From contig JBJORD010000028.1 in the NCBI GenBank assembly GCA_046049585.1, positions 1-34,396 of the forward strand: a DNA stretch of 34,396 nucleotides, given 5' to 3'. Under the pieces are notes generated by a model that saw only the letters and a program-made list of their open reading frames with translations, was not told where the DNA came from and made no database searches. Origin of the DNA: Candidatus Parcubacteria bacterium (GTDB lineage: Bacteria; Patescibacteriota; Minisyncoccia; Phycocordibacterales; UBA918). The position numbers were made by a program, and so were the translations under genes. Below, piece after piece: positions 4,576-15,207 of this stretch (positions within the stretch are counted from its first letter, which is position 1; each line of letters begins with the position of its first letter).

Positions 4576-6090
4576 CTAAGCTAATCCTGGGAAAAAATCT
4601 CGTTCAATACAACGAGCAGGCACGCCGAGAGTGTGCAGTGACTGATACGCTGCGTCGACCATTTTTGGCGGACCAGAGATATACCATGTACGAGTAGCAT
4701 AGTCAGGAATGCGACGCGAAATGATATCAGCAGACAGGAATCCCGATTCCGCGCCAGGCGGTATTTCACCACTCCCAATGACTGGTACGAGCTCACCGAC
4801 ATTCATGAGCTCCACCTGGTACGCCAAATCAGCGGCAGTCGCCACACAATACAGTGTTTTAATATCACGTTTTTCACCTTGTAGCGTCAGAGTTGTTGCA
4901 TGACTGACAAAGGGAGTCACGCCAATGCCCCCAGCAATAAAGCCAAGCTTCACTACTGGATTTGTCGGTAAGATAAAATCACCTGAACGTTGTGACGCAA
5001 TCACTACGTCTCCTGTCTTAAGATGCACCATAGCAGACTTGTAACTACTTGCATTTTCGGGCAACTTAAAAGCCAAACGCAACTCGTTTTCTTCAGGCGC
5101 TGAAGCGATGGTGAAATAACGACGAGTACCGCGACTATCAGTGTTTTTGTGTGGGACCATCCACTCAAGGTACTGCCCAGCTTTAAATATAAATCCAGCC
5201 GGTTTTGGAAACGAAAATTCGTAGATAGAACCAGTTACTTTTTTGAGACTAGTGAGGGTTAAAATGAGTTTTTGCCGTTGCCCCCATGGCGCGAGAGCGA
5301 TATTACCGACCACCAGCGCCAACTCTGGCGACATTACAAACGAACCAAGCGGCGGCAACGAGGCCACGACGGCCACCAGTGTTGCATATACATACCGAGC
5401 ATTTTTTTGACTCGGCATCGTAAAGGGTTCAGTCAACATGAAGAATCCAAGGAATAAGAACGGGTATGAAATAAAAAAAGTGGTGAGTAATTCAGTAGTC
5501 GAACTTGGATTTTGCCAAGACAAGAGCATATAACACAAGAATCCGACAGCAATAAATACCGCTACCATATCGAGCCGCTTCACTTTTTCTGTTACCAAAA
5601 AACCGCCAATCACAATCGGAATAAACAGTAATGGGGACGCAACCCACCAGGCACCGCCGCCAAAACCAAACAAAGACCCGAGGACAAGACCAGCAGCCAC
5701 AGGATTCACCAAATGTTGCTTTTTGTACACCAGCACATATTTGCTGGCAATAGCCAGTGCAGTAATAACCGCTGAGGCAAACAAATCTTCAGGGGTAGTC
5801 GACGGGAGTAGTAACAATAGTAAAATCAACCCCGTAATAATCGAAGAAGCATGTTGAAGTGGTACTTTTGTGGCAGTGGCACAAGCAGCATTTACCAAGA
5901 GCGCGGTTACCATAATAACTACACTGCTTGCGATAAGTTCCAGTGGTATAAAACCGATATATCCACCAAACGAAGCGAGGAGCGCAACCCCATAGACAGC
6001 AAGTAAAACTTGTATGATCACCGAATACATCGGCATACGATCAAGATACAAGAGCGGTAAACGAGTAACGGTTTGCATAACAGTTTGCAT
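4576..6090 (-). CDS. Fusion protein: N-terminal RnfD/NqrB-like polytopic membrane domain plus C-terminal FNR-like FAD/NAD(P)H oxidoreductase domain
   Basis: The N-terminal ~250 aa are multi-TM and end in FFMLTEPFTMP (compare the NqrB/RnfD f.atDPvTsP motif). The C-terminal half has the FAD motif RRYFTIAS, the NAD(P)H motif GFIAGGIGVTPF and ISGPPKM. I saw no 2Fe-2S Cys cluster. Confidence 0.72.
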   Translation of the reverse strand: MQTVMQTVTRLPLLYLDRMPMYSVIIQVLLAVYGVALLASFGGYIGFIPLELIASSVVIMVTALLVNAACATATKVPLQHASSIITGLILLLLLLPSTTPEDLFASAVITALAIASKYVLVYKKQHLVNPVAAGLVLGSLFGFGGGAWWVASPLLFIPIVIGGFLVTEKVKRLDMVAVFIAVGFLCYMLLSWQNPSSTTELLTTFFISYPFLFLGFFMLTEPFTMPSQKNARYVYATLVAVVASLPPLGSFVMSPELALVVGNIALAPWGQRQKLILTLTSLKKVTGSIYEFSFPKPAGFIFKAGQYLEWMVPHKNTDSRGTRRYFTIASAPEENELRLAFKLPENASSYKSAMVHLKTGDVVIASQRSGDFILPTNPVVKLGFIAGGIGVTPFVSHATTLTLQGEKRDIKTLYCVATAADLAYQVELMNVGELVPVIGSGEIPPGAESGFLSADIISRRIPDYATRTWYISGPPKMVDAAYQSLHTLGVPARCIERDFFPGLA

Positions 6091-6171
6091 ACATCACTAG
6101 TATACTACCCTCTGTAGCTGTCTGACCAACTTCCCTGTATACTTGTATTGTTATTCGTAAAAAATATATCT

Positions 6172-6738
6172 ATGCCAGTTGTTCTTATCATAATTGGATT
6201 AGCAGTAGCGATCGGACTTGGTGGTTACTTTCTTCGTCCTGAAGAAGTGGTCACTCCGGCCACAATAACTGAATTACCTACTACGCCTGAAGCAACGGGT
6301 ACTCCAGTTGTACCAGTTGCGGACAGTAATACCTCTACACCAACCACTCCAGCTGCCACCACACCTACCGTCCCGACTGTCCCGACCGCACCAACTACAC
6401 CTACCGTCCCTGTGACACCCACCACTCCAGCCACTGCCTACGCTGATGGACCATACACCGTGAATACCAGCTACGTTGCACCAGGTAATGCGAATCACAC
6501 CATGGCAGTTACTCTCACCCTTGCTGGTGATACAGTAACCACTGCTTCAATTGTCTACGGTGGTGACTCAGTCGATCAGTCAAGCAACTACCAGAGTCGC
6601 TTCATGCGCGCCTACGAATCACAGGTCGTCGGCAAGAAGCTCGACAGTATCAAGCTTTCACGTGTCGGTGGAGCATCACTCACCAGTAACGGTTTTAATG
6701 ATGCCGTTGCCAAAGTCAAAGCAGCAGCACAAAACTAA
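6172..6738 (+). CDS. Membrane-anchored FMN-binding domain protein (RnfG/NqrC-like) with a Pro/Thr-rich linker
   Basis: It has an N-terminal TM helix (MPVVLIIIGLAVAIGLGGYFL), a ~60-aa PT-rich linker, and a C-terminal FMN_bind-like domain. That domain carries the flavinylation-type motif RVGGASLTS (Ser codon 6676-6678). The ORF-track TTG at 6148 is an alternative start. Confidence 0.72.
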   Translation: MPVVLIIIGLAVAIGLGGYFLRPEEVVTPATITELPTTPEATGTPVVPVADSNTSTPTTPAATTPTVPTVPTAPTTPTVPVTPTTPATAYADGPYTVNTSYVAPGNANHTMAVTLTLAGDTVTTASIVYGGDSVDQSSNYQSRFMRAYESQVVGKKLDSIKLSRVGGASLTSNGFNDAVAKVKAAAQN

Positions 6739-6742
6739 GTGT

Positions 6743-7618
6743 ATGGAATCAATCACCATCGTTGCCCTTGGCACACACTGGTGGATTGAACTATTTGATG
6801 AGATGAGCCCTGAGCGTCGTAATGGAATCGCTAATGCCATTACGACGCTCTTGTCGTCTATCGAAGAACGATTTTCACGGTTTCGTGAAGATTCACTAGT
6901 GAGCACACTAAATCGCGAGCGCAGTGTGGCAACTAGCGATCGGGACCTGGCAGAGCTAATCGGTATTGGCCGATCAACGTATCGCCATACCAAAAGTGCC
7001 TTTAATATTCTGATTGGTGACGCGCTCATGGCGCGTGGCTATGACAACACGTACTCACTCGTAGCCATGGAGCGTGCAGTTGAAATCGGCAACCCACTCA
7101 CTGACCTCGACTACAACGACAACACATGGCGATTATCAACAGGATTACTTGATCTCGGTGGTATTGGTAAAGGCTGGGCTATCGATAAAGTCGCAGAACT
7201 ACTCCGCAACAACGGAGTGGTCGAGTTCCTCATCAACGGTGGTGGCGATATGTATGGTACGACCGAGCATAATGAGCCGATTACCATCTACCTCGAGCAC
7301 CCGACTGAGACACAGACGTATCTCGGCACTACCACCATCATGAACCAGGGCTTTGCCGCCTCAAGCACGTACAAACGTCGCTGGCAGACAGCCGCCGGTG
7401 AGACGAGCCATATAATTGATGACACCAAGGTAATTGACGCTAGTTTCGTTATAGCAACTGACGCTGTGACAGCAGATATTTTTGCCACAACCGCCCTCCT
7501 CCTCCCTGAGGAGGACTTTGCTCCGTTAGCAATGCAAGAACGAGTTTCCTACAGTCTCTTCATTGTAGCAACAGGAGAACTCCGCACTACACCAAATTTT
7601 CCACTACATAGACTATAA
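6743..7618 (+). CDS. apbE: FAD:protein FMN transferase (ApbE family)
   Basis: Matches ApbE in ALGTHWWIELFD, EERFSRFREDSLVSTLN, DLGGIGKGWAIDKV, INGGGDMY, AASSTYKR and HIID. The ATG at 6743 lies 4 nt after the upstream stop. The ORF-track start at 6551 overlaps the previous gene and encodes non-homologous sequence. Confidence 0.85.
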   Translation: MESITIVALGTHWWIELFDEMSPERRNGIANAITTLLSSIEERFSRFREDSLVSTLNRERSVATSDRDLAELIGIGRSTYRHTKSAFNILIGDALMARGYDNTYSLVAMERAVEIGNPLTDLDYNDNTWRLSTGLLDLGGIGKGWAIDKVAELLRNNGVVEFLINGGGDMYGTTEHNEPITIYLEHPTETQTYLGTTTIMNQGFAASSTYKRRWQTAAGETSHIIDDTKVIDASFVIATDAVTADIFATTALLLPEEDFAPLAMQERVSYSLFIVATGELRTTPNFPLHRL

Positions 7619-7735
7619 ATACTACTGGTTGGAGCCATTTCTACTACTTACAGAGTAATGTGTAAGAAATACATAGATCATCCGTCTAAGGCTTGGGAGG
7701 TTGACGGAAGAAGCCAAAACCTAAAGGAGATGACG

Positions 7736-8215
7736 ATGAAACCCCTGCATGAAATATGCAAATTGATTGTGATTTGTTCACTAGGAGTATTTGCTACTCC
7801 CACAATAGCGAGCGAATCAGAGTCACTACCCAAACAAGTGCTCACCAATGAGGATGTTCAGCGTGCTTTTATTCAAGCAAAAATTGTTGAACATTTCCCA
7901 GAAGACTACTCTGTAATGCTCGCAATAGCCTATTGCGAGTCGCGATCCCGGCCTTTTATCCATTACGAGAGTGATGGTTCACTACGGGGACATGACACCG
8001 GAGCGTCAACAGCTGGTGGAACTTACCAAGTGCTCATGGGGCTACATGGCGATGCCATTCGCGAAATGGGCCTCGACATGAGCAATCTCGACGACTACTT
8101 TACATTCGTCGAGCGCTTGAAACGCGAGAATCCCAACTATGGTGCCTGGAGCGAATCGAAGAGCTGCTGGAAGAGTCGGATTGGTGACTTTGATCCAAAC
8201 GTGAATATCAGCTGA
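7736..8215 (+). CDS. Secreted lytic transglycosylase-like (SLT/lysozyme-like fold) protein
   Basis: SD AAGGAG at 7724-7729 lies 6 nt before the ATG. It has a signal-like N-terminus (MKPLHEICKLIVICSLGVFATPTIASE). Motifs AIAYCESRS ... GGTYQVLMG ... NPNYGAW resemble the ES / GLMQ / AYNaG pattern of family-1 transglycosylases. Confidence 0.5.
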   Translation: MKPLHEICKLIVICSLGVFATPTIASESESLPKQVLTNEDVQRAFIQAKIVEHFPEDYSVMLAIAYCESRSRPFIHYESDGSLRGHDTGASTAGGTYQVLMGLHGDAIREMGLDMSNLDDYFTFVERLKRENPNYGAWSESKSCWKSRIGDFDPNVNIS

Positions 8216-8241
8216 GGCACGACGTGATGCTCGTCATATAC

Positions 8242-8277
8242 CCCGCCCAGGATCAGAATTGATCTTTGGCGGGTTTG
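8242..8277 (+). terminator. Hairpin terminator after the transglycosylase-like gene
   Basis: CCCGCCCAGGATC-AGAATT-GATCTTTGGCGGG followed by TTTG. The stem is imperfect. Confidence 0.45.
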
Positions 8278-8337
8278 TCATATACCTTTATGTATCAGGT
8301 TACGGTATTTCCTCCCCTGTCAGTCTGTCAGTATTTT

Positions 8338-11067
8338 CTAACCTTCAGTCGTAGCTATAGTACTTGGTTCTTGACTGTTCTCAGTTACCACAGGCTCGAT
8401 ACCGACTGCAGCTTCTGCATTTTCTGTTGTGTTTAGTTCGGTTGTATTGGTATCACTAGGCTCACTTGTTTCATTAGATGTCTCTTCTGTTGCTGGCGAC
8501 GGTGCCTCAAATTGATTTTCAATAGCTTCTAAACGTTCTCGCAACAGGGCGTTTTCATTTTCCAAATCAGTCAATCTATCTTCGTGTCCGCTGATAGTCT
8601 GCCAAATTTCTTGTATGGCTTCTACTACCACAGCTACTAGGTTCTTGGTATTGAGCGACCAATAATCTCCCCCTTTTTGTACTACTTCTGGCACAACCAG
8701 ATCTACTTCTTGTGCCAAAAATCCTACCTCCGATTGGGTACCAAAACGTTCCGTATCCAACCATTCATACCGTACACCACGCAGGGCCAACACCATTTCA
8801 AGCGCACCACTAATTTCTTGCACATTTGTCTTGAGACGCTCATCTGAGGGATCACGAATGATGGCGCCATTGGCATCGACACTGAGGTTGGTAGCACCAC
8901 CAAGCAGATTCGTGGCTGTAATGGTGCCAGTGACTGTCAATTTGGTACCAGGAGTCGATGTTCCAATACCTACATTACCGTTACTGTGTATGGCAAAAAT
9001 ATCACCGTCAGTTATATTGGTAATACCAAAATAGCCCAAAGTTGAGGTGGCCAGGCTTTCGATACCAAACTCAGGAGTAGTATCAAGTAACCCCAAATTA
9101 CCAGCTGAAGTAAGACGTAATCGTTCTGCAAATACTCCTACAGAGACGGTCGAGAATCCAATAAATCCGTTGGGTGTAGTGTTATTGGTATCCTCTCTAG
9201 AGAGAGTAATCTGTGATGCTCGATCATCTGTGGTCGTAAATGAGGTGTTGTAATGTGCAATCCGTCCTGCTGTAGTAGTGATACTGTTACCGGCAGAACG
9301 CATTAGTATTTCTGTACTACGATTACTCGTACTATCAGATCCCACAAAACCATCTAATGTCAGTGAAGTGCCCGTAGTGCTCGATGCTGTGCTAAAAGCA
9401 ATAAAAGTCGCTCCACCGACACCGAGATGCTGACCATTAAATTGTAACTTGTTTGAAAAGAGTAGTTGATTAGCTGTACTTGTTGCAAATGGAATTGCAT
9501 TAGCGGTATAGACACTCGGGGTATCAGTTAGGCCTAGAAATGTTGATGCCCCACCACCACTAATTCCAAGCGAGGAAGTGGCCACCCAAGTTGGCAAACC
9601 ACTTACGACTTGCAATACTTGACCAGTAGTACCAATAGCTCGACTGGCCAATGTATCAGCTCCTGAAGCATAGAGCAGGTCGCCACTAGAATACGTAACT
9701 AATCCTGTTCCTCCCGAACTAACATCGAGTACCTCAGATAAGGTCAGTCTGGTTATTGTTGTAGTTGCTAAAGTAGAGGTACCAACAACACTAAGCCTGC
9801 CAGAATTTGTAGTACTAGCAAAAGTGGCTGTACCGGTAAAGGTTGGGCCATTTGAGAATACCGCCAATCCTCCACCTGCTGAACCAGTTTCGTCAGAGAG
9901 TAGCGCAGCTAGTTGCTCTGAAGTGGTGAATGCTGAAGACAAACCAAGTGACGAGGTGGCAATTTGTGACCACGAGTTACCAGCTCCACCAATGAGGAGT
10001 TGGTTTGTGGTGATGGTCGAGAGACCAGTCCCACCACGGGTAGCAGCGAGGGTACCAGTAGTATCGGCGATAGCGATATTGAGACTGGTGGTAGACACAC
10101 TAAGGGTGTTGCCAGTCCAGAAGAGATTGGTACCAGCGGTAATGCGAGCACTAGGGGCGTTGTAGTACGTGTTCCAGTTGGTAGATGAAGCAGTGAGGAT
10201 TCCTTCATAGCCAGCTGCGTAATCAATGGCCAAAGTACCAGTGGTTGTTATTGGTGAGCCAGAGATGGTAAAGCCTGTTGGTACAGTAGCTGCGATAGAT
10301 GACACAGTGCCACTACCGCCCCCACTGATTCCAAGCGATGAAGTCGCGACCCAGCGAGTAGAAGTACCAGTGCTCTGTAATATCATGCCAGATGCCCCAG
10401 CACTAGCTGTCGCATCTCGTAACGAGCCAGCTAAGGCGAGATCACCAGCAATAGTTAGTAACGCGATTGAGCTACTCGTACCAATACTCACTCTACCAGC
10501 TCCGTCGATATATATCCCCTCATTACCACCATCACCAGTTAACCAATTGGTGCCGAGCGCTAAATTGGAACCAATCGCACCAGAGAATATTGGCGCAACA
10601 AGTGTCGTACTAGAAACAGTAGCGGGATTTACTACAACACTCTCACGCACTTCGATAAAGTCGCTACTTGCATCATCCATAAAACTAAATAGTTGTTTTT
10701 CAAGCCGATTGATCCGCACATCACGAGACTGCTGTTGCTGCATCAATTGAACATAGCGCACCATCCCCACAAATCGACTATCGGTATATTGTTTAAAAGC
10801 ATTCCATTCATCATGACTAATACCAGTACTGTTAGATAGCTTCGTAAATTGATTGGATTGCACGAAAGGACTCACTACGGTAGTAGAAGCAACAAGTAAT
10901 TGACGCGTGATTGGTTCTGAGACTGGGACGGTATGAGTTACCACAGTATCTGCCACTACTGGGAAGGTGGTATATACCACCGAATCAGAGGACGACGAAA
11001 AAACTCCCATAACAGTGGCTAAGAGAAATGTAGATACGGTGGACAGAGAACTTACAAACCAGTCCAT
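8338..11067 (-). CDS. 909-aa N-terminally membrane-anchored tail-fibre-like surface protein with a C-terminal Peptidase_S74 intramolecular chaperone domain
   Basis: It has an N-terminal TM helix (VSTFLLATVMGVF) and a Q-rich coiled coil. A ~600-aa Gly/Ser/Thr-rich beta-repeat region follows, with the duplicated modules WVATSSLGISGGG and GGTGL...LL.G. GNVGIGTSTPGTKLTV is followed by DPSDERLKTNVQEISGALEMVLALRGVRYEW...GFLAQEV (S74 autoproteolysis signature, Ser codon 8845-8847), a coiled coil and an acidic tail. Confidence 0.8.
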   Translation of the reverse strand: MDWFVSSLSTVSTFLLATVMGVFSSSSDSVVYTTFPVVADTVVTHTVPVSEPITRQLLVASTTVVSPFVQSNQFTKLSNSTGISHDEWNAFKQYTDSRFVGMVRYVQLMQQQQSRDVRINRLEKQLFSFMDDASSDFIEVRESVVVNPATVSSTTLVAPIFSGAIGSNLALGTNWLTGDGGNEGIYIDGAGRVSIGTSSSIALLTIAGDLALAGSLRDATASAGASGMILQSTGTSTRWVATSSLGISGGGSGTVSSIAATVPTGFTISGSPITTTGTLAIDYAAGYEGILTASSTNWNTYYNAPSARITAGTNLFWTGNTLSVSTTSLNIAIADTTGTLAATRGGTGLSTITTNQLLIGGAGNSWSQIATSSLGLSSAFTTSEQLAALLSDETGSAGGGLAVFSNGPTFTGTATFASTTNSGRLSVVGTSTLATTTITRLTLSEVLDVSSGGTGLVTYSSGDLLYASGADTLASRAIGTTGQVLQVVSGLPTWVATSSLGISGGGASTFLGLTDTPSVYTANAIPFATSTANQLLFSNKLQFNGQHLGVGGATFIAFSTASSTTGTSLTLDGFVGSDSTSNRSTEILMRSAGNSITTTAGRIAHYNTSFTTTDDRASQITLSREDTNNTTPNGFIGFSTVSVGVFAERLRLTSAGNLGLLDTTPEFGIESLATSTLGYFGITNITDGDIFAIHSNGNVGIGTSTPGTKLTVTGTITATNLLGGATNLSVDANGAIIRDPSDERLKTNVQEISGALEMVLALRGVRYEWLDTERFGTQSEVGFLAQEVDLVVPEVVQKGGDYWSLNTKNLVAVVVEAIQEIWQTISGHEDRLTDLENENALLRERLEAIENQFEAPSPATEETSNETSEPSDTNTTELNTTENAEAAVGIEPVVTENSQEPSTIATTEG

Positions 11068-11183
11068 TATAACTATTATACCTGTTTGTTACGGTTTATT
11101 TTGCTATTACACACATGAATCAACCCATACTACATCAAGACAGGCTTAGGTGTATCAAAAGAATATAGTATACTGCGAGCAAT

Positions 11184-11735
11184 ATGGCACTACCCACAAA
11201 AACTGAGGCCAGCATACTTTTACAAACCTACACCACAGACAGTTATTTACTCCATCATGCAGCTATGGTTGGTGCTGCTACTGCTTCGTATGCTGCTGTC
11301 TTTGGTGAAGACGAGCACTTGTATTGGCTCACTGGCTACTTACACGACATTGACTATGAGCAGCATCCGACCGAACATCCTGGACCATCACTAGCTTGGT
11401 TTCGAGAGTGGGGGTATCCAGAAGATTTAATCCATGCCGTTGAGGCTCATGCCAATGGTTTTAATGGATACACTATCAAACCCGCAAGTAACCTCGCCCG
11501 TGCGCTGATTGCCTGCGACGAGATCTGCGGTATCTTTTATGCCTACCAAAAACTAAATCCTATCCTGTACAGCGAGATGAAAGTGTCATCAATCGTAAAG
11601 CGCCTCAAAGAAGAAAAGTTTGCACCTGGTATCAGTCGTACCCATATCTACGAGGCAGTAGAAGCCCTGGGCGTCACTCTCGAGTCACACATCGAGCGAC
11701 TCATCACCGCCTTAACTACCTTAGATACAAAATGA
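11184..11735 (+). CDS. HD-superfamily hydrolase (COG2316-like)
   Basis: Contains LLHHAAMVGA...FGEDEHLYWLTGYLHDIDYEQHPTEH...AVEAHA, with His/Asp metal ligands in the HD arrangement. Confidence 0.78.
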   Translation: MALPTKTEASILLQTYTTDSYLLHHAAMVGAATASYAAVFGEDEHLYWLTGYLHDIDYEQHPTEHPGPSLAWFREWGYPEDLIHAVEAHANGFNGYTIKPASNLARALIACDEICGIFYAYQKLNPILYSEMKVSSIVKRLKEEKFAPGISRTHIYEAVEALGVTLESHIERLITALTTLDTK

Positions 11736-11739
11736 TTCT

Positions 11740-12057
11740 ATGCCTGGTCAATTTAGTCTCCGTGTGTATGAACTGGCGCTCAGTATTCCACCTGGTCGAG
11801 TGACAACGTATGGCACCATCGCCAAGGCTGCCGGAGGTGGCGCTATGGCGTCACGAAGTATCTCAAGCATACTCAGCAAAGCCCCTAATCAACGAGCTAT
11901 CCCCTGGCACCGAATTGTCTACGCTGGTGGCAAAGTCTGGCTCGATAACGAACACGAAATGACCCGTCGCAAAATGTACAAAAAGGAAGGTATTCTTATC
12001 GACAGCAAAGGTCGTATCAAAGACTTCGAGGAGATTTTTTACGACTTTAACGAATAA
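11740..12057 (+). CDS. Alkyltransferase-like protein (ATL; MGMT DNA-binding domain with Cys replaced by Trp)
   Basis: Contains VYELALSIPPGRVTTYGTIA...AIPWHRIVYAGGKV. The canonical PCHRV active site reads PWHRI, as in YbaZ/Atl1-type ATLs. Only the 105-aa DNA-binding domain is present. Confidence 0.78.
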   Translation: MPGQFSLRVYELALSIPPGRVTTYGTIAKAAGGGAMASRSISSILSKAPNQRAIPWHRIVYAGGKVWLDNEHEMTRRKMYKKEGILIDSKGRIKDFEEIFYDFNE

Positions 12058-12076
12058 TACTCATATAAAAAGCAAT

Positions 12077-12110
12077 AGAAAAACACTTTCATATATGAAA
12101 GTGTTTTTCT
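12077..12110. repeat. 34-bp perfect palindrome AGAAAAACACTTTCATA|TATGAAAGTGTTTTTCT (copy 1 of the ACTTTCATATATGAAAGT family), positioned like a bidirectional terminator
   Basis: Read directly from the sequence. It lies between the convergent ATL stop (12057) and the AlkC-like stop (12109-12111) and has A5/T5 flanks. Confidence 0.85.
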
Positions 12111-13236
12111 AACCCGAGCGAAGCGTAAAATCAGTTTTGCACACTACAACGCCGTTAATTTGTACGGCAACTGTATGCGTACCTGGATACAGTGTAAATG
12201 TAGTGGCATCGGCTTTGAGTCGGTGGTTTTTGATGAGCTCGAGTGACTCACCTCGCTTGAGCGAAACTATTTTCCACTTAAACACCTTAGGTGCAGTTGT
12301 ACCGTTTTTCTTTACAAAGTGGATGACGTAGTCGATGAGGAGATTTGTGTCATCAGTCGCAGTGATTGTGGTAGCAAATGACAACACGTCTCCAGCCTGT
12401 ATCTCTGAACTTGCGATAGTAAAACTATCTACCGTATATGTCGCACTGTTATAGCCAAGCAGGGTGAGTGTATCGCTATGTCCCTGTTTGATCAGAGTAC
12501 GTAATGCATGTTTCGTCATCCAAGCGAGCTCATGCGTATTTTGCTTCCCCAGCTTTTGCCACTGACGTAAAGTATCTATCACCACAGCCGGCTCTTTTTT
12601 CGCGATGTCATTGAGATGGTTTGCAATCGAGCGGGTCACATAACGAGTCGCATCTGCATGGAGGATATTGAGTAATGGGAGTGTATCAGCGCTCGAGAGT
12701 GGTACTCGCCCGCTCCAAGGCAATAAGGGCCTTGTCCCCTCACTCACTAGCCGCCTGACATGGTAGTTCTCATCACGAACCCACTGCTTCATAACGCGTA
12801 ATGTTTCTTTGGGAAACGCCCGCAGATAATACCGAATCGCGTCCTCCATAGAAAAACGCTGAGTTAGCTCACGGAGGGTTTCGAGTGATAGCGCGAGACG
12901 CTCCTTAGTACAACCATGCTTGGCCACATACTCACCAAAAGGCGCCAAAATAAATTCACCAAAATCATCATCAGTCTTTGTGGGATCTAGTGGTGGCGGC
13001 AAGGCGCGCACTATCACTGCTACCGCTTTTTTATAATCCGTTGGTAGATGTCGCGAAAGTACGTCTGCAATCCAGCGAATGCGGGCTTTGAGTTCGAGCG
13101 TGAGAAGTGTATGCATCACTTCCCGCTCAAATTCTTTAGCATCAAAGTTTTTGTCAGCTGCCGCGAGGAGTGACGCCAGGTACGCGACCCGCTCTTTATT
13201 AAACAAATGATCTTTGAGTGAAAAGCGTTCTGTCAC
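12109..13236 (-). CDS. alkC: DNA alkylation repair glycosylase, AlkC-like (HEAT-like repeats plus a C-terminal beta-rich Ig-like domain)
   Basis: Contains HVRRLVSEGTRPLLPWSGRV...YVTRSIANHLNDIAKKEPAVV, typical of the DNA-alkylation-repair HEAT-like repeat family. The ~100-aa beta-rich C-terminus is consistent with the long AlkC form. The start is GTG. Confidence 0.72.
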   Translation of the reverse strand: MTERFSLKDHLFNKERVAYLASLLAAADKNFDAKEFEREVMHTLLTLELKARIRWIADVLSRHLPTDYKKAVAVIVRALPPPLDPTKTDDDFGEFILAPFGEYVAKHGCTKERLALSLETLRELTQRFSMEDAIRYYLRAFPKETLRVMKQWVRDENYHVRRLVSEGTRPLLPWSGRVPLSSADTLPLLNILHADATRYVTRSIANHLNDIAKKEPAVVIDTLRQWQKLGKQNTHELAWMTKHALRTLIKQGHSDTLTLLGYNSATYTVDSFTIASSEIQAGDVLSFATTITATDDTNLLIDYVIHFVKKNGTTAPKVFKWKIVSLKRGESLELIKNHRLKADATTFTLYPGTHTVAVQINGVVVCKTDFTLRSG

Positions 13237-13468
13237 CAGAATAGCGTATCACAATAGGATAGGTTTGACGTGTCCTATAAATTGTGTTATCTTTGTCTTA
13301 CCTTAAGATTCTCGTGTAGTGCTCTTCGGGTGACAGGCGAATAGTGGCGACCTCATTTGTATTGGTCCCTGCCACATCGATTGGATTTATATACTGCACA
13401 CAAAAAACAGCAGAATCGTATCTTCCCTATTTTTGGCTTTGATACCTGTTGTCACTAACAACAAACAA

Positions 13469-14941
13469 ATGGATTCACACAATACCCGACCACGTCGGTC
13501 GAATGCTTATACTAGCGATGCTCGCCCACGCGGTGCTCGTCCTTTTAATCGCGCTCCTCGTACTGGTACTACCAGATCAGCCGATACTGGTGACCGCATC
13601 ATAGTTACCGGTTCAGACACTGACGAACGTGGATCACGCCGCACATACAGTGGCAGTACTGATCGTCGCACAAGTAGTGATCGTGGCCAAGGTGGCCGCA
13701 GTAGTTTTACCCCCCGCGACAGTCGTGGTGGTTACAACCGTGCCACTGCCTCGTTTGGTGGTGGTCGTGGTGGATACAGCCGTGGCGGTAGTACTGGCGG
13801 TGGTCGTGGTCGTGGCGGACGGGTTATGCAGAGTTTTGATGTATCACAATACATCAACAAAAACCCAGTCGTTGTAGACAACGAACCAGCCTACGTACCA
13901 AAACACACGTTCCACGACTTTGGTCTAGAGCGTCAACTGGTTGAAGCTATTGATGATATGCAATTGACGATTCCGTCACCAATCCAAGACCAAATCATTC
14001 CACACATTCTTGAAGGTCGCGACGTAGTTGGACTCGCTGCTACCGGTACTGGTAAGACAGCCGCTTTCTTGATTCCAACCATCAACAAAACCCTCAAGCA
14101 GCGTAACCGTCTCACACTTATTCTCGCGCCAACTCGCGAACTAGCGATTCAGGTTGAGCAAGAACTTCGCAAGCTTACGCCAAAGATGGGTATCTTCTCT
14201 ACGGTATGTGTTGGTGGAATGAACATCCGACCACAGATCATGGGCCTCAAGAAGCGTAACAACTTCATTATCGGTACCCCTGGTCGTGTACAAGATCTCA
14301 TTGACCGTGGCCACATCAAGCCAGGTGCGTTTACTACCGTGATCTTAGACGAGGCTGACCGCATGCTCGATATGGGATTCATCCACGATATGCGCAGTAT
14401 CCTCAAAGATATTCCGACCGATCACGAGACACTCTTCTTTTCAGCGACCATGAGTAAGACAGTCGAGGGACTCATCCACGAGTTCATGCGTAATCCAATT
14501 ACCGTCTCGGTAAAAAAGAAAGACATCACCAGTAGTGTGACCCAAGATGTAGTGTTTTATGAAGCACATCACAAATTTGATTTACTCGCGACCCTACTTG
14601 GCAAACCAGAATTCGAACGCGTGATCATCTTTGGTGCTATGAAGCACAGTGTTGAAAAACTCTCTGAAGAGTTGGTTAAGGTAGGCCTCAAGGCTGATGC
14701 CATTCACGGCAACAAGAGTCACGGCCAACGCCAACGCTCACTCCAAAACTTCAAATCTGGTCGGGTTAATATCTTAGTTGCGACTGACGTAGCGGCCCGT
14801 GGTATCCACGTGGACAACGTCTCACACGTGATCAACTACGACCTACCAAACACCTTTGAAGATTATGTACACCGTATTGGTCGTACTGGTCGCGCCGACA
14901 AGCGTGGCTCGGCCCTAACCTTTGTACCAAAACAAAAGTAA
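13469..14941 (+). CDS. DEAD-box ATP-dependent RNA helicase with an N-terminal Arg/Gly-rich extension
   Basis: It has the Q motif region, AATGTGKTAAF, PTRELA, DEAD (VILDEADRMLDMGF), SAT and HRIGRTGR. The ATG at 13469 is preferred over the ORF-track TTG at 13433. Confidence 0.9.
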   Translation: MDSHNTRPRRSNAYTSDARPRGARPFNRAPRTGTTRSADTGDRIIVTGSDTDERGSRRTYSGSTDRRTSSDRGQGGRSSFTPRDSRGGYNRATASFGGGRGGYSRGGSTGGGRGRGGRVMQSFDVSQYINKNPVVVDNEPAYVPKHTFHDFGLERQLVEAIDDMQLTIPSPIQDQIIPHILEGRDVVGLAATGTGKTAAFLIPTINKTLKQRNRLTLILAPTRELAIQVEQELRKLTPKMGIFSTVCVGGMNIRPQIMGLKKRNNFIIGTPGRVQDLIDRGHIKPGAFTTVILDEADRMLDMGFIHDMRSILKDIPTDHETLFFSATMSKTVEGLIHEFMRNPITVSVKKKDITSSVTQDVVFYEAHHKFDLLATLLGKPEFERVIIFGAMKHSVEKLSEELVKVGLKADAIHGNKSHGQRQRSLQNFKSGRVNILVATDVAARGIHVDNVSHVINYDLPNTFEDYVHRIGRTGRADKRGSALTFVPKQK

Positions 14942-14957
14942 GTAGAGCTATCAAGCT

Positions 14958-14998
14958 ACAAAAGCTCCTCCTGTACATAGTGCAGGAGGAGCTTTTGT
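14958..14998 (+). terminator. Rho-independent-type hairpin after the helicase gene
   Basis: ACAAAAGCTCCTCCTG...CAGGAGGAGCTTTTGT forms a 16-bp perfect stem. Confidence 0.7.
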
Positions 14999-15022
14999 AT
15001 GACTCTTGTATACTAGATGGAT

Positions 15023-15103
15023 ATGAAAGTTATCTTTATTGCCATTGCCTTGTTTGTAGCTCTAGCGATTCTCAATGCCTACTTTGGCGGGACTCCATTT
15101 TAA
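15023..15103 (+). CDS. Possible 26-aa hydrophobic micropeptide (MKVIFIAIALFVALAILNAYFGGTPF)
   Basis: TATACT at 15009-15014 lies 8 nt before the ATG, the same geometry as many real genes here. It would form a single TM helix. I have no homology evidence. Confidence 0.25.
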   Translation: MKVIFIAIALFVALAILNAYFGGTPF

Positions 15104-15207
15104 TCACAAGGAATTTGGATTATATTTACTTTTGAGTAATTCATGGTATTATATTAGTTCTACACGTCAGGATCAACTTGGCGGTAGCAGCACTGGGAGG
15201 TGCACAA

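Follow-up and report, generated by a model that had tools for sequence, protein, structure and literature searches.

The question raised by this locus is what a protein resembling the tail fibre of a phage is doing among the housekeeping genes of a bacterium with a small genome. The window, by which we mean the entire 34,396-nucleotide contig JBJORD010000028.1 of a Candidatus Parcubacteria bacterium (assembly GCA_046049585.1), contains on its minus strand, at positions 8338-11067, an open reading frame (ORF) of 909 codons followed by a stop, whose product we call P0001. An earlier reading of the window, here called the original prediction, had picked out the same frame and viewed the gene as a chromosomal, domesticated fibre with a self-cleaving chaperone domain. 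Nearly all of its details are confirmed here, and its interpretation is supported to the extent that computation can judge. We suggest that P0001 is probably an exported, homotrimeric surface fibre of this Patescibacteria (candidate phyla radiation, CPR) bacterium, built on the plan of phage tailspikes and tail fibres, and that it most likely binds a host cell. To our knowledge, little is understood of how Patescibacteria find and hold their hosts beyond the type IV pili of Saccharibacteria, and phage-derived, self-chaperoning fibres with swappable cassettes would be an obvious candidate for this task. P0001 should be a handy test case, with its 909 residues, a delimited folding module (677-855), a distinct variable cassette, and no second S74 gene beside it: the genome (76 contigs, 88.5% complete) measures 716 kb, a size typical of Patescibacteria, and a six-frame search of it with the S74 profile returned P0001 (61.3 bits) as the sole match. 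No paralog was found in this genome.

The evidence begins at the C-terminus, where P0001 carries an S74 chaperone-protease, complete in dyad and fold. Pfam Peptidase_S74 (PF13884) matches residues 741-796 with an E-value of 6.2e-15 and 55.7 bits, over positions 1-57 of the 58 in the profile and well above the gathering cut-off of 22 bits, so that the S74 signature seen by eye in the original prediction is borne out by a profile search. The SDxxxK dyad reads S741-D-E-R-L-K746, with the serine at the very residue and codon that had been proposed; both serine and lysine are kept in 58 of 58 motif-bearing homologs, and they are near-invariant in an alignment of 40 sequences (A1). In the AlphaFold2 model of the C-terminus, the predicted local distance difference test (pLDDT) score is 74 at residues 741-750 and ~89-95 at 751-850; the core fold of residues 745-855 is modelled confidently from the monomer (pLDDT ~90-95) and includes a single long C-terminal helix at residues 807-853. 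When this model was compared with the PDB using Foldseek, the top match was the ICA domain of MyRF (7dc3; E 5e-6, template modelling score 0.64), followed by the chaperones of phi29 gp12 (3gud) and K1F endosialidase (3gw6) with E-values of 0.02-0.1; 1v0e was also among the matches. MyRF was also the only match in a PDB search by sequence, and a scan of P0001 against NCBIfam gave no family match.

The segments on either side of the predicted cleavage site are also distinctive. Directly upstream, the conserved stalk end contains the near-invariant residues G702, G714, G724, D731 and G734, and would form the C-terminus of the mature fibre. Downstream, the piece that begins at Ser741 comes to 169 residues by simple arithmetic, and it closes with the acidic tail foreseen in the original prediction, in which glutamate and threonine each account for 22% of residues 861-909. 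The length following the serine is 169-339 residues in the Patescibacteria-type rows L019-L047 (22 labelled Patescibacteria and 2 further metagenome-assembled genomes, MAGs); for other bacteria and a pair of distant Patescibacteria it ranges over 90-195 residues, with most values at 100-150.

Between the N-terminus and the stalk end lies the presumed shaft. The original prediction had described some 600 residues of fibre rich in glycine, serine and threonine, and these three indeed make up 44% of residues 141-740. Fibre repeats widely common to homologs occupy residues 181-330, and a little-shared cassette occupies residues 541-676; tail-fibre families of the PHROG collection match P0001 at residues 149-825 and 292-847. 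An internal duplication about 250 residues apart had been pointed out as well, and it holds: the 13-residue segment WVATSSLGISGGG is found identically at residues 239 and 494, a spacing of 255 residues, as part of a repeat of ~55 residues (207-261 vs 461-516) that reaches a Smith-Waterman score of 103 vs a shuffled mean of 39 +/- 6, with 84% identity between the two copies at the DNA level. Modelled as a monomer, the shaft comes out poorly: most of residues 144-740 have a pLDDT under 50, and the mean for the full-length chain is 51.8, as would be expected if folding required three chains to intertwine.

The N-terminal module depends on where translation begins. An alternative gene call in the databases, P0002, starts at M20 and yields 890 residues, but the first ATG (11067) appears to be the better start, because P0006 (1417 residues) and P0135 (2414 residues) likewise begin with a conserved MDW..SVSTFL..VFSS, and because the N-terminal 55 residues are the best-conserved stretch between P0001 and P0006. 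The near-consensus TATAAT reported upstream of this ATG is present 7 nucleotides before it, and a second TATAAT overlaps the ATG itself; there is, however, no -35 partner, and in a promoter scan the sites around the hexamer were no more frequent than in shuffled sequence. The protein starts with a hydrophobic helix, with a Kyte-Doolittle value of 1.67 across residues 4-23 and an AlphaFold2 helix at residues 2-21 (pLDDT 70-75), which is conserved in P0006, P0135 and P0019. This helix may be a membrane anchor or a cleaved signal; of the transmembrane anchor originally proposed, the hydrophobic helix stands, and the anchoring is one of these two possibilities. Since most relatives bear classical signal peptides at their N-termini, export to the cell exterior would be the natural reading, and with it an extracellular fibre. 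The helix is followed by a linker and a neck whose motifs DxRFVG and RLEKQLFSFMDDxSD are common to P0006, P0135 and P0137. For the neck, a glutamine-rich coiled coil had been suggested; we find two helices predicted with modest confidence, but the glutamine-richness comes down to one QQQQ run. The module is rare: the N-terminal 165 residues gave 8 matches among 1.84 billion representative proteins, and the full N-module was found in only two other proteins.

The C-terminal part, in turn, is widespread among relatives. A large protein collection held 275 homologs of P0001, and those that are named are called 'tail fiber domain-containing protein', which is an automatic NCBI name, and come from Parcubacteria or Paceibacterota MAGs. 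Of 61 related genomes, 39 gave matches, frequently within ORFs of 2,000-7,300 residues, and in a sample across the Patescibacteria the S74 domain occurred in 49 of 201 genomes (~24%) and 45 of 169 genera. In the search for contig loci, P0001 on its own gave no match and A1 was too divergent; a C-terminal alignment of 9 sequences (A2) was used instead. Among named genomes, identities of 50-76% over the C-terminal 145 residues are found in Patescibacteria MAGs only; Bacteroidota, Bdellovibrionales/Bacteriovoracaceae, Planctomycetota and other groups give 28-52%, with most values in the 30s. Matches from phages and IMG/VR have 29-40% identity and cover residues 645-832 only, the nearest phage match having 34% identity over 21% of P0001. 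A maximum-likelihood tree of the C-terminal module places P0001 in a clade of 25 rows (Shimodaira-Hasegawa-like approximate likelihood ratio test support 83), comprising 22 Patescibacteria with P0001 included, 2 further MAGs and 1 long-branch artefact; none of the sampled viral contigs falls inside it. P0001 would accordingly belong to a fibre lineage that the Patescibacteria have to themselves, and it is best seen as one ordinary member of a large, recurrent branch of S74-capped fibres in this phylum. Given a short domain and only moderate support for the clade, we do not claim a single origin for the lineage.

The same comparisons point to a gene put together from parts. Coverage of P0001 by 119 homologs peaks at residues 181-330 and 691-860 and has troughs at residues 1-150 and 541-660, in a BLASTP-based profile that is qualitative only. 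BLASTP with compositional adjustment omitted the C-terminal high-scoring segment pair of 145 residues between P0001 and P0005, ~75% identical, which was recovered by tblastn, HMMER and Smith-Waterman; best-BLASTP values of identity and coverage can mislead for such low-complexity fibre proteins. Similarity to the syntenic gene of L020 and to the collinear P0005 begins sharply at about residue 677-691, with Smith-Waterman scores of 607 and 617 past this boundary against a null of ~40, and a segment directly upstream that stays at the null; for syntenic and other homologs together the boundary falls at about 677-693. By these alignments the P0001 gene is mosaic. Homologs with the same C-terminal module carry other inserts, either a pectate-lyase-3 beta-helix (P0021 and P0040, PF12708) or LVIVD/beta-propeller repeats.

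The genomic surroundings are those of a bacterial chromosome. Beside the fibre gene, the contig carries genes for ATP synthase subunits and PGI; a flavin module of RnfD::FNR, flavin mononucleotide (FMN)-binding and ApbE proteins (window positions 4576-7618); an HD hydrolase, an alkyltransferase-like protein (ATL), an AlkC-like protein, a DEAD helicase, TruB and an aldolase; an ABC transporter, PrmC, HisRS, UppP, DsbA and an AddA-like helicase; and RpoD, DnaG, a TrpR-like protein and RpoC. Of the other ORFs of the 34.4-kb contig that were scanned against Pfam, each was of a housekeeping kind or had no family match, and no phage gene was among them, leaving phage-gene-free flanks of 8 kb on one side and 23 kb on the other. 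The GC content is flat across the gene, as expected of native DNA, and no flanking repeats or signature of a mobile element were detected around it. The absence of neighbouring phage genes noted in the original prediction is thereby upheld for the whole contig. The flanks it named, ApbE and the HD hydrolase, are present, but between ApbE and the fibre gene lies the gene of a secreted protein of 185 residues, P0122, which is thus the nearest on that side.

The position of the fibre gene is nonetheless variable among relatives. The loci L144-L146 are the closest by their housekeeping genes (HD 86%, AlkC-like 79%, ApbE 70%) and have the order ApbE - P0122 homolog - HD - ATL, with 74 bp at the site of the fibre gene; in L020, a more distant locus (ApbE 50%), the very site of P0001 is occupied by a fibre gene. 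In L017, L022, L027 and L031, the fibre gene sits on the opposite side of the flavin module, downstream of RnfD::FNR, and in L023, L032, L034, L035 and L036 it comes a few kb after F1 ATP-synthase alpha/beta-type genes, on their downstream side. Fibre genes near the flavin module or the ATP synthase are found in MAGs labelled Nomurabacteria, Kaiserbacteria and others, in either orientation at the flavin module. Because site, side and presence all vary, the gene appears to have been gained, lost or moved within a conserved housekeeping neighbourhood; the domesticated chromosomal fibre originally proposed is supported by the recurrence of this neighbourhood, to which we add that the gene is accessory and mosaic and no fixed feature of the chromosome. 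A functional tie of the fibre to the RnfD::FNR/FMN/ApbE module was considered and rejected, as the side varies and the gene is absent from the closest relatives; the adjacency is probably positional.

By analogy with K1F endosialidase, pb1 of phage T5 and Bd3182 of Bdellovibrio, we propose the following course of events. The N-terminal hydrophobic helix would direct export and may hold P0001 in the membrane. Outside the cell, the S74 domains of three chains would associate via their helices and serve as the nucleus from which the intertwined, beta-rich shaft folds, starting at its C-terminal end. Ser741, together with Lys746, would then cut the chain just before Ser741, so that the 169-residue piece made up of chaperone and acidic tail is freed. 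The mature fibre would run from residue 1 (or ~24) to 740, with the neck as its base and the cassette 541-676 in its distal half, and would most likely bind some structure on the surface of another cell, namely the host of what is presumably an episymbiotic bacterium.

Attachment to a host is one of several functions that such a protein might serve. The same anatomy fits equally well a surface fibre that recognises no host at all, and acts in cohesion with its own kind, in attachment to minerals or particles, or as an element associated with the envelope or S-layer. That the gene is dispensable in close relatives, and that S74 is found in only about a quarter of the sampled genomes and hence does not represent a universal host-attachment device, would both agree with this reading. 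The swapped cassette upstream of a conserved stalk end and the varied inserts, however, resemble diversifying receptor-binding proteins, and the analogue that has been studied experimentally acts on prey cells (PMC10769870); we thus consider a fibre without host recognition to be unlikely. More in line with the founding member of the S74 family, the K1F endosialidase, which is an enzyme (3gw6 and 1v0e are among the fold matches), P0001 might instead be a surface or secreted depolymerase of the tailspike type that cuts a polysaccharide of the host or of a biofilm matrix rather than simply adhering. The pectate-lyase-3 domains of P0021 and P0040 and the LVIVD/beta-propeller repeats of other homologs speak for such a role. 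In P0001, though, Pfam, NCBIfam and the PDB sequence search reveal no enzymatic domain, and residues 144-690 are low-complexity glycine, serine and threonine fibre, which makes an enzyme quite improbable.

A fibre gene left behind by a degraded prophage, or recently transferred from a phage and lacking a cellular role, would account for the matches of PHROG families and phage long-tail-fibre genes to the C-terminal third and for the presence or absence of the gene among close relatives. Against this, the 909-codon frame is intact, the GC content native and the surroundings free of repeats and, for 8 kb and 23 kb, of phage genes; the nearest sequences are chromosomal and from Patescibacteria, with identities of 50-76%, where phage and viral ones do not exceed 40%, and a hydrophobic, export-type N-terminus takes the place of the virion-attachment domain. 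A prophage remnant is largely refuted by these observations, and we regard it as highly improbable.

The proposal of an exported, trimeric fibre that binds a host cell has its own weak points. A trimeric beta-helix shaft is assumed, given the poor monomer model, and residues 144-690 contain no binding or enzymatic domain recognisable by Pfam, NCBIfam or PDB sequence search. Sec targeting of P0001 is not assured, because the helix (MDW...) has no basic residue ahead of it and hence lacks a basic n-region. Lastly, the fibre gene is absent from its site in L144-L146, and since these are the closest relatives by housekeeping genes, it is accessory and dispensable. A bolder version, in which P0001 is the main host-recognition device, with a range that is reset by swapping the ~541-676 cassette and an N-module that represents a new mode of rooting, strikes us as doubtful. 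If it were true, the stalk end and the self-cleaving chaperone would act as a universal adaptor for folding and assembly below a swappable cassette, and helix, linker and neck would root the fibre, in an undescribed way, in an envelope that probably has no outer membrane.

Table 1. Features of the fibre gene and its downstream spacer, in window coordinates; residue numbers refer to P0001.
Feature	Position	Strand	Basis
Whole gene P0001	8338..11067	-	ORF reading, conserved N-terminus
TATAAT hexamer	11075..11080	-	7 nt 5' of ATG, read from the letters
Hydrophobic N-terminal helix, predicted export signal or membrane anchor, residues 1-23	10999..11067	-	Kyte-Doolittle, AlphaFold2
T/V/S/P-rich linker, predicted disordered, residues 24-84	10816..10998	-	Composition; pLDDT 33-46
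Predicted helical neck, residues 85-143	10639..10815	-	AlphaFold2 helices 85-112 and 122-143, pLDDT about 50-60
Presumed fibre shaft, G/S/T-rich, residues 144-676	9040..10638	-	Composition, homolog coverage, PHROG matches
Internal repeat copy 1, residues 207-261, WVATSSLGISGGG at 239-251	10285..10449	-	Smith-Waterman
Internal repeat copy 2, residues 461-516, WVATSSLGISGGG at 494-506	9520..9687	-	Smith-Waterman
Conserved stalk end GNVGIGTSTPGTKLTV...LLGGATNLSVDANGAIIRDP, residues 677-740	8848..9039	-	Similarity boundary, near-invariant residues
Ser741 codon, predicted nucleophile and cleavage site	8845..8847	-	SDERLK, Pfam, conservation
S74 intramolecular chaperone-protease domain, residues 741-855	8503..8847	-	Pfam, AlphaFold2, Foldseek
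Acidic T/E/S/N-rich tail, predicted disordered, residues 856-909	8341..8502	-	Composition; pLDDT <50
Imperfect hairpin, 14-bp stem	8242..8273		122-bp convergent spacer between P0122 and fibre gene

The neighbour P0122 (7658-8215, plus strand; likely start near 7730) converges with the fibre gene. In its 9 homologs, of 44-64% identity, C-E-[ST] (E70), a G..QVL motif (Q-V-L) and two cysteines are invariant; neither Pfam nor the PDB sequence search gave a match. Its AlphaFold2 model has a pLDDT of 68, and Foldseek returned nearly all lytic transglycosylases, none of them significant (E >= 2). P0122 is not tied to the fibre, because it is kept after ApbE in relatives without a fibre gene. The hairpin in the spacer between the two genes has a folding energy of -21.9 kcal/mol (z -2.6) and is followed by a T-run on the plus strand only; a terminator scan did not flag it, and it is possible that it serves as terminator for both genes. 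Beyond the opposite end of the fibre gene, the close relatives L144-L146 and L148 carry Peptidase_C39_2 and Peptidase_M23 genes between ATL and the next downstream gene (AlkC-like in L144-L146), and the corresponding positions 12057-12109 of the window are without both. Taken with the variable presence of the fibre gene, this suggests a small variable island for secreted or envelope-active proteins, set within housekeeping genes that are otherwise conserved.

Known systems show that little in P0001 is new in kind. The phage fibres from which the S74 domain is known (the chaperone of K1F endosialidase, 3GW6; phi29 gp12, 3GUD; and the L-shaped tail fibre pb1 of T5, 4UW8) share with it the Ser-Lys S74 dyad, a chaperone with a C-terminal helix and its position at the extreme C-terminus. 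Their chaperone is shed after folding, and by analogy the same would be expected of P0001, which differs in having neither a virion-attachment N-domain nor tail genes as neighbours and is at most 34-40% identical to any phage protein, over residues 645-832 only. In fold P0001 is closer to MyRF (E 5e-6) than to the phage chaperones (E 0.02-0.1). MyRF is a transcription factor of the endoplasmic reticulum membrane whose cleavage frees its DNA-binding domain; as proposed for P0001, a phage chaperone-protease (ICA, 7DC3) was adopted by a cellular membrane protein, but MyRF has no fibre and no extracellular role. The Patescibacteria proteins named for their tail fibre domain, and repeat proteins of 2,000-8,800 residues from the same phylum, have the same C-terminal module and the 181-330 repeats; most of these relatives are longer than P0001 and begin with a classical signal peptide or an N-domain of INYQGKL type. 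Our literature search turned up no description of these proteins, nor any paper that connects S74 or tail fibres with Patescibacteria.

The closest described system is the S74 subgroup of the mosaic adhesive trimer (MAT) fibres of Bdellovibrio bacteriovorus HD100, of which there are 21, chromosomally encoded and of ~1,000 residues (Caulton et al. 2024, Nat Microbiol, PMC10769870). In every MAT, a signal peptide precedes a conserved N-domain of ~130 residues that is rich in beta structure, and 13 of the 21 end in S74 with SDxxxK; the MAT Bd3182 cleaves itself at S782, and the S782A mutation abolishes cleavage (PMC10769870). The fibres are localised to the surface of the predator, and their adhesive tips vary (PMC10769870). 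P0001 is like them in being chromosomal and not phage-borne, in its predicted fibre of phage-like repeats, its C-terminal S74 SDxxxK, its predicted N-terminal export signal, its mosaicism of modules and its proposed recognition of another bacterium. Its GIGT..P...L ahead of the predicted cleavage site may also resemble the consensus reported for the MAT 'capping loop'. In place of the MAT beta-rich N-domain, judged here by its description, P0001 has the hydrophobic helix and a linker and neck predicted to be disordered and alpha-helical, respectively. An N-domain reading INYQGKL..dGtY.m.F.ly...WtE follows the signal peptide directly in ~17 of 120 homologs (among them P0003, P0010, P0023, P0025, P0027 and P0031; L024, L044 and L048; and L069 at 7549-15117), and a 2,522-residue S74 protein from Bdellovibrionales has an N-terminus that resembles it weakly (E 2.5e-4). 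The INYQGKL-type domain is probably the MAT-type N-domain, and if so its carriers would be true members of the MAT family; the N-terminus of P0001 has no similarity to it. P0001 has an extra acidic tail of ~55 residues past the chaperone, unlike MATs, and stands as the one S74 fibre of its genome against 21 MATs in B. bacteriovorus HD100. The MATs, moreover, belong to a periplasmic predator, and P0001 to a small-genome Patescibacterium. The design and processing of such a fibre are thus already known from Bdellovibrio, and P0001 has many sister genes; what sets it apart is its rare N-module, its acidic tail and a phylum that lies outside the published work on such fibres.

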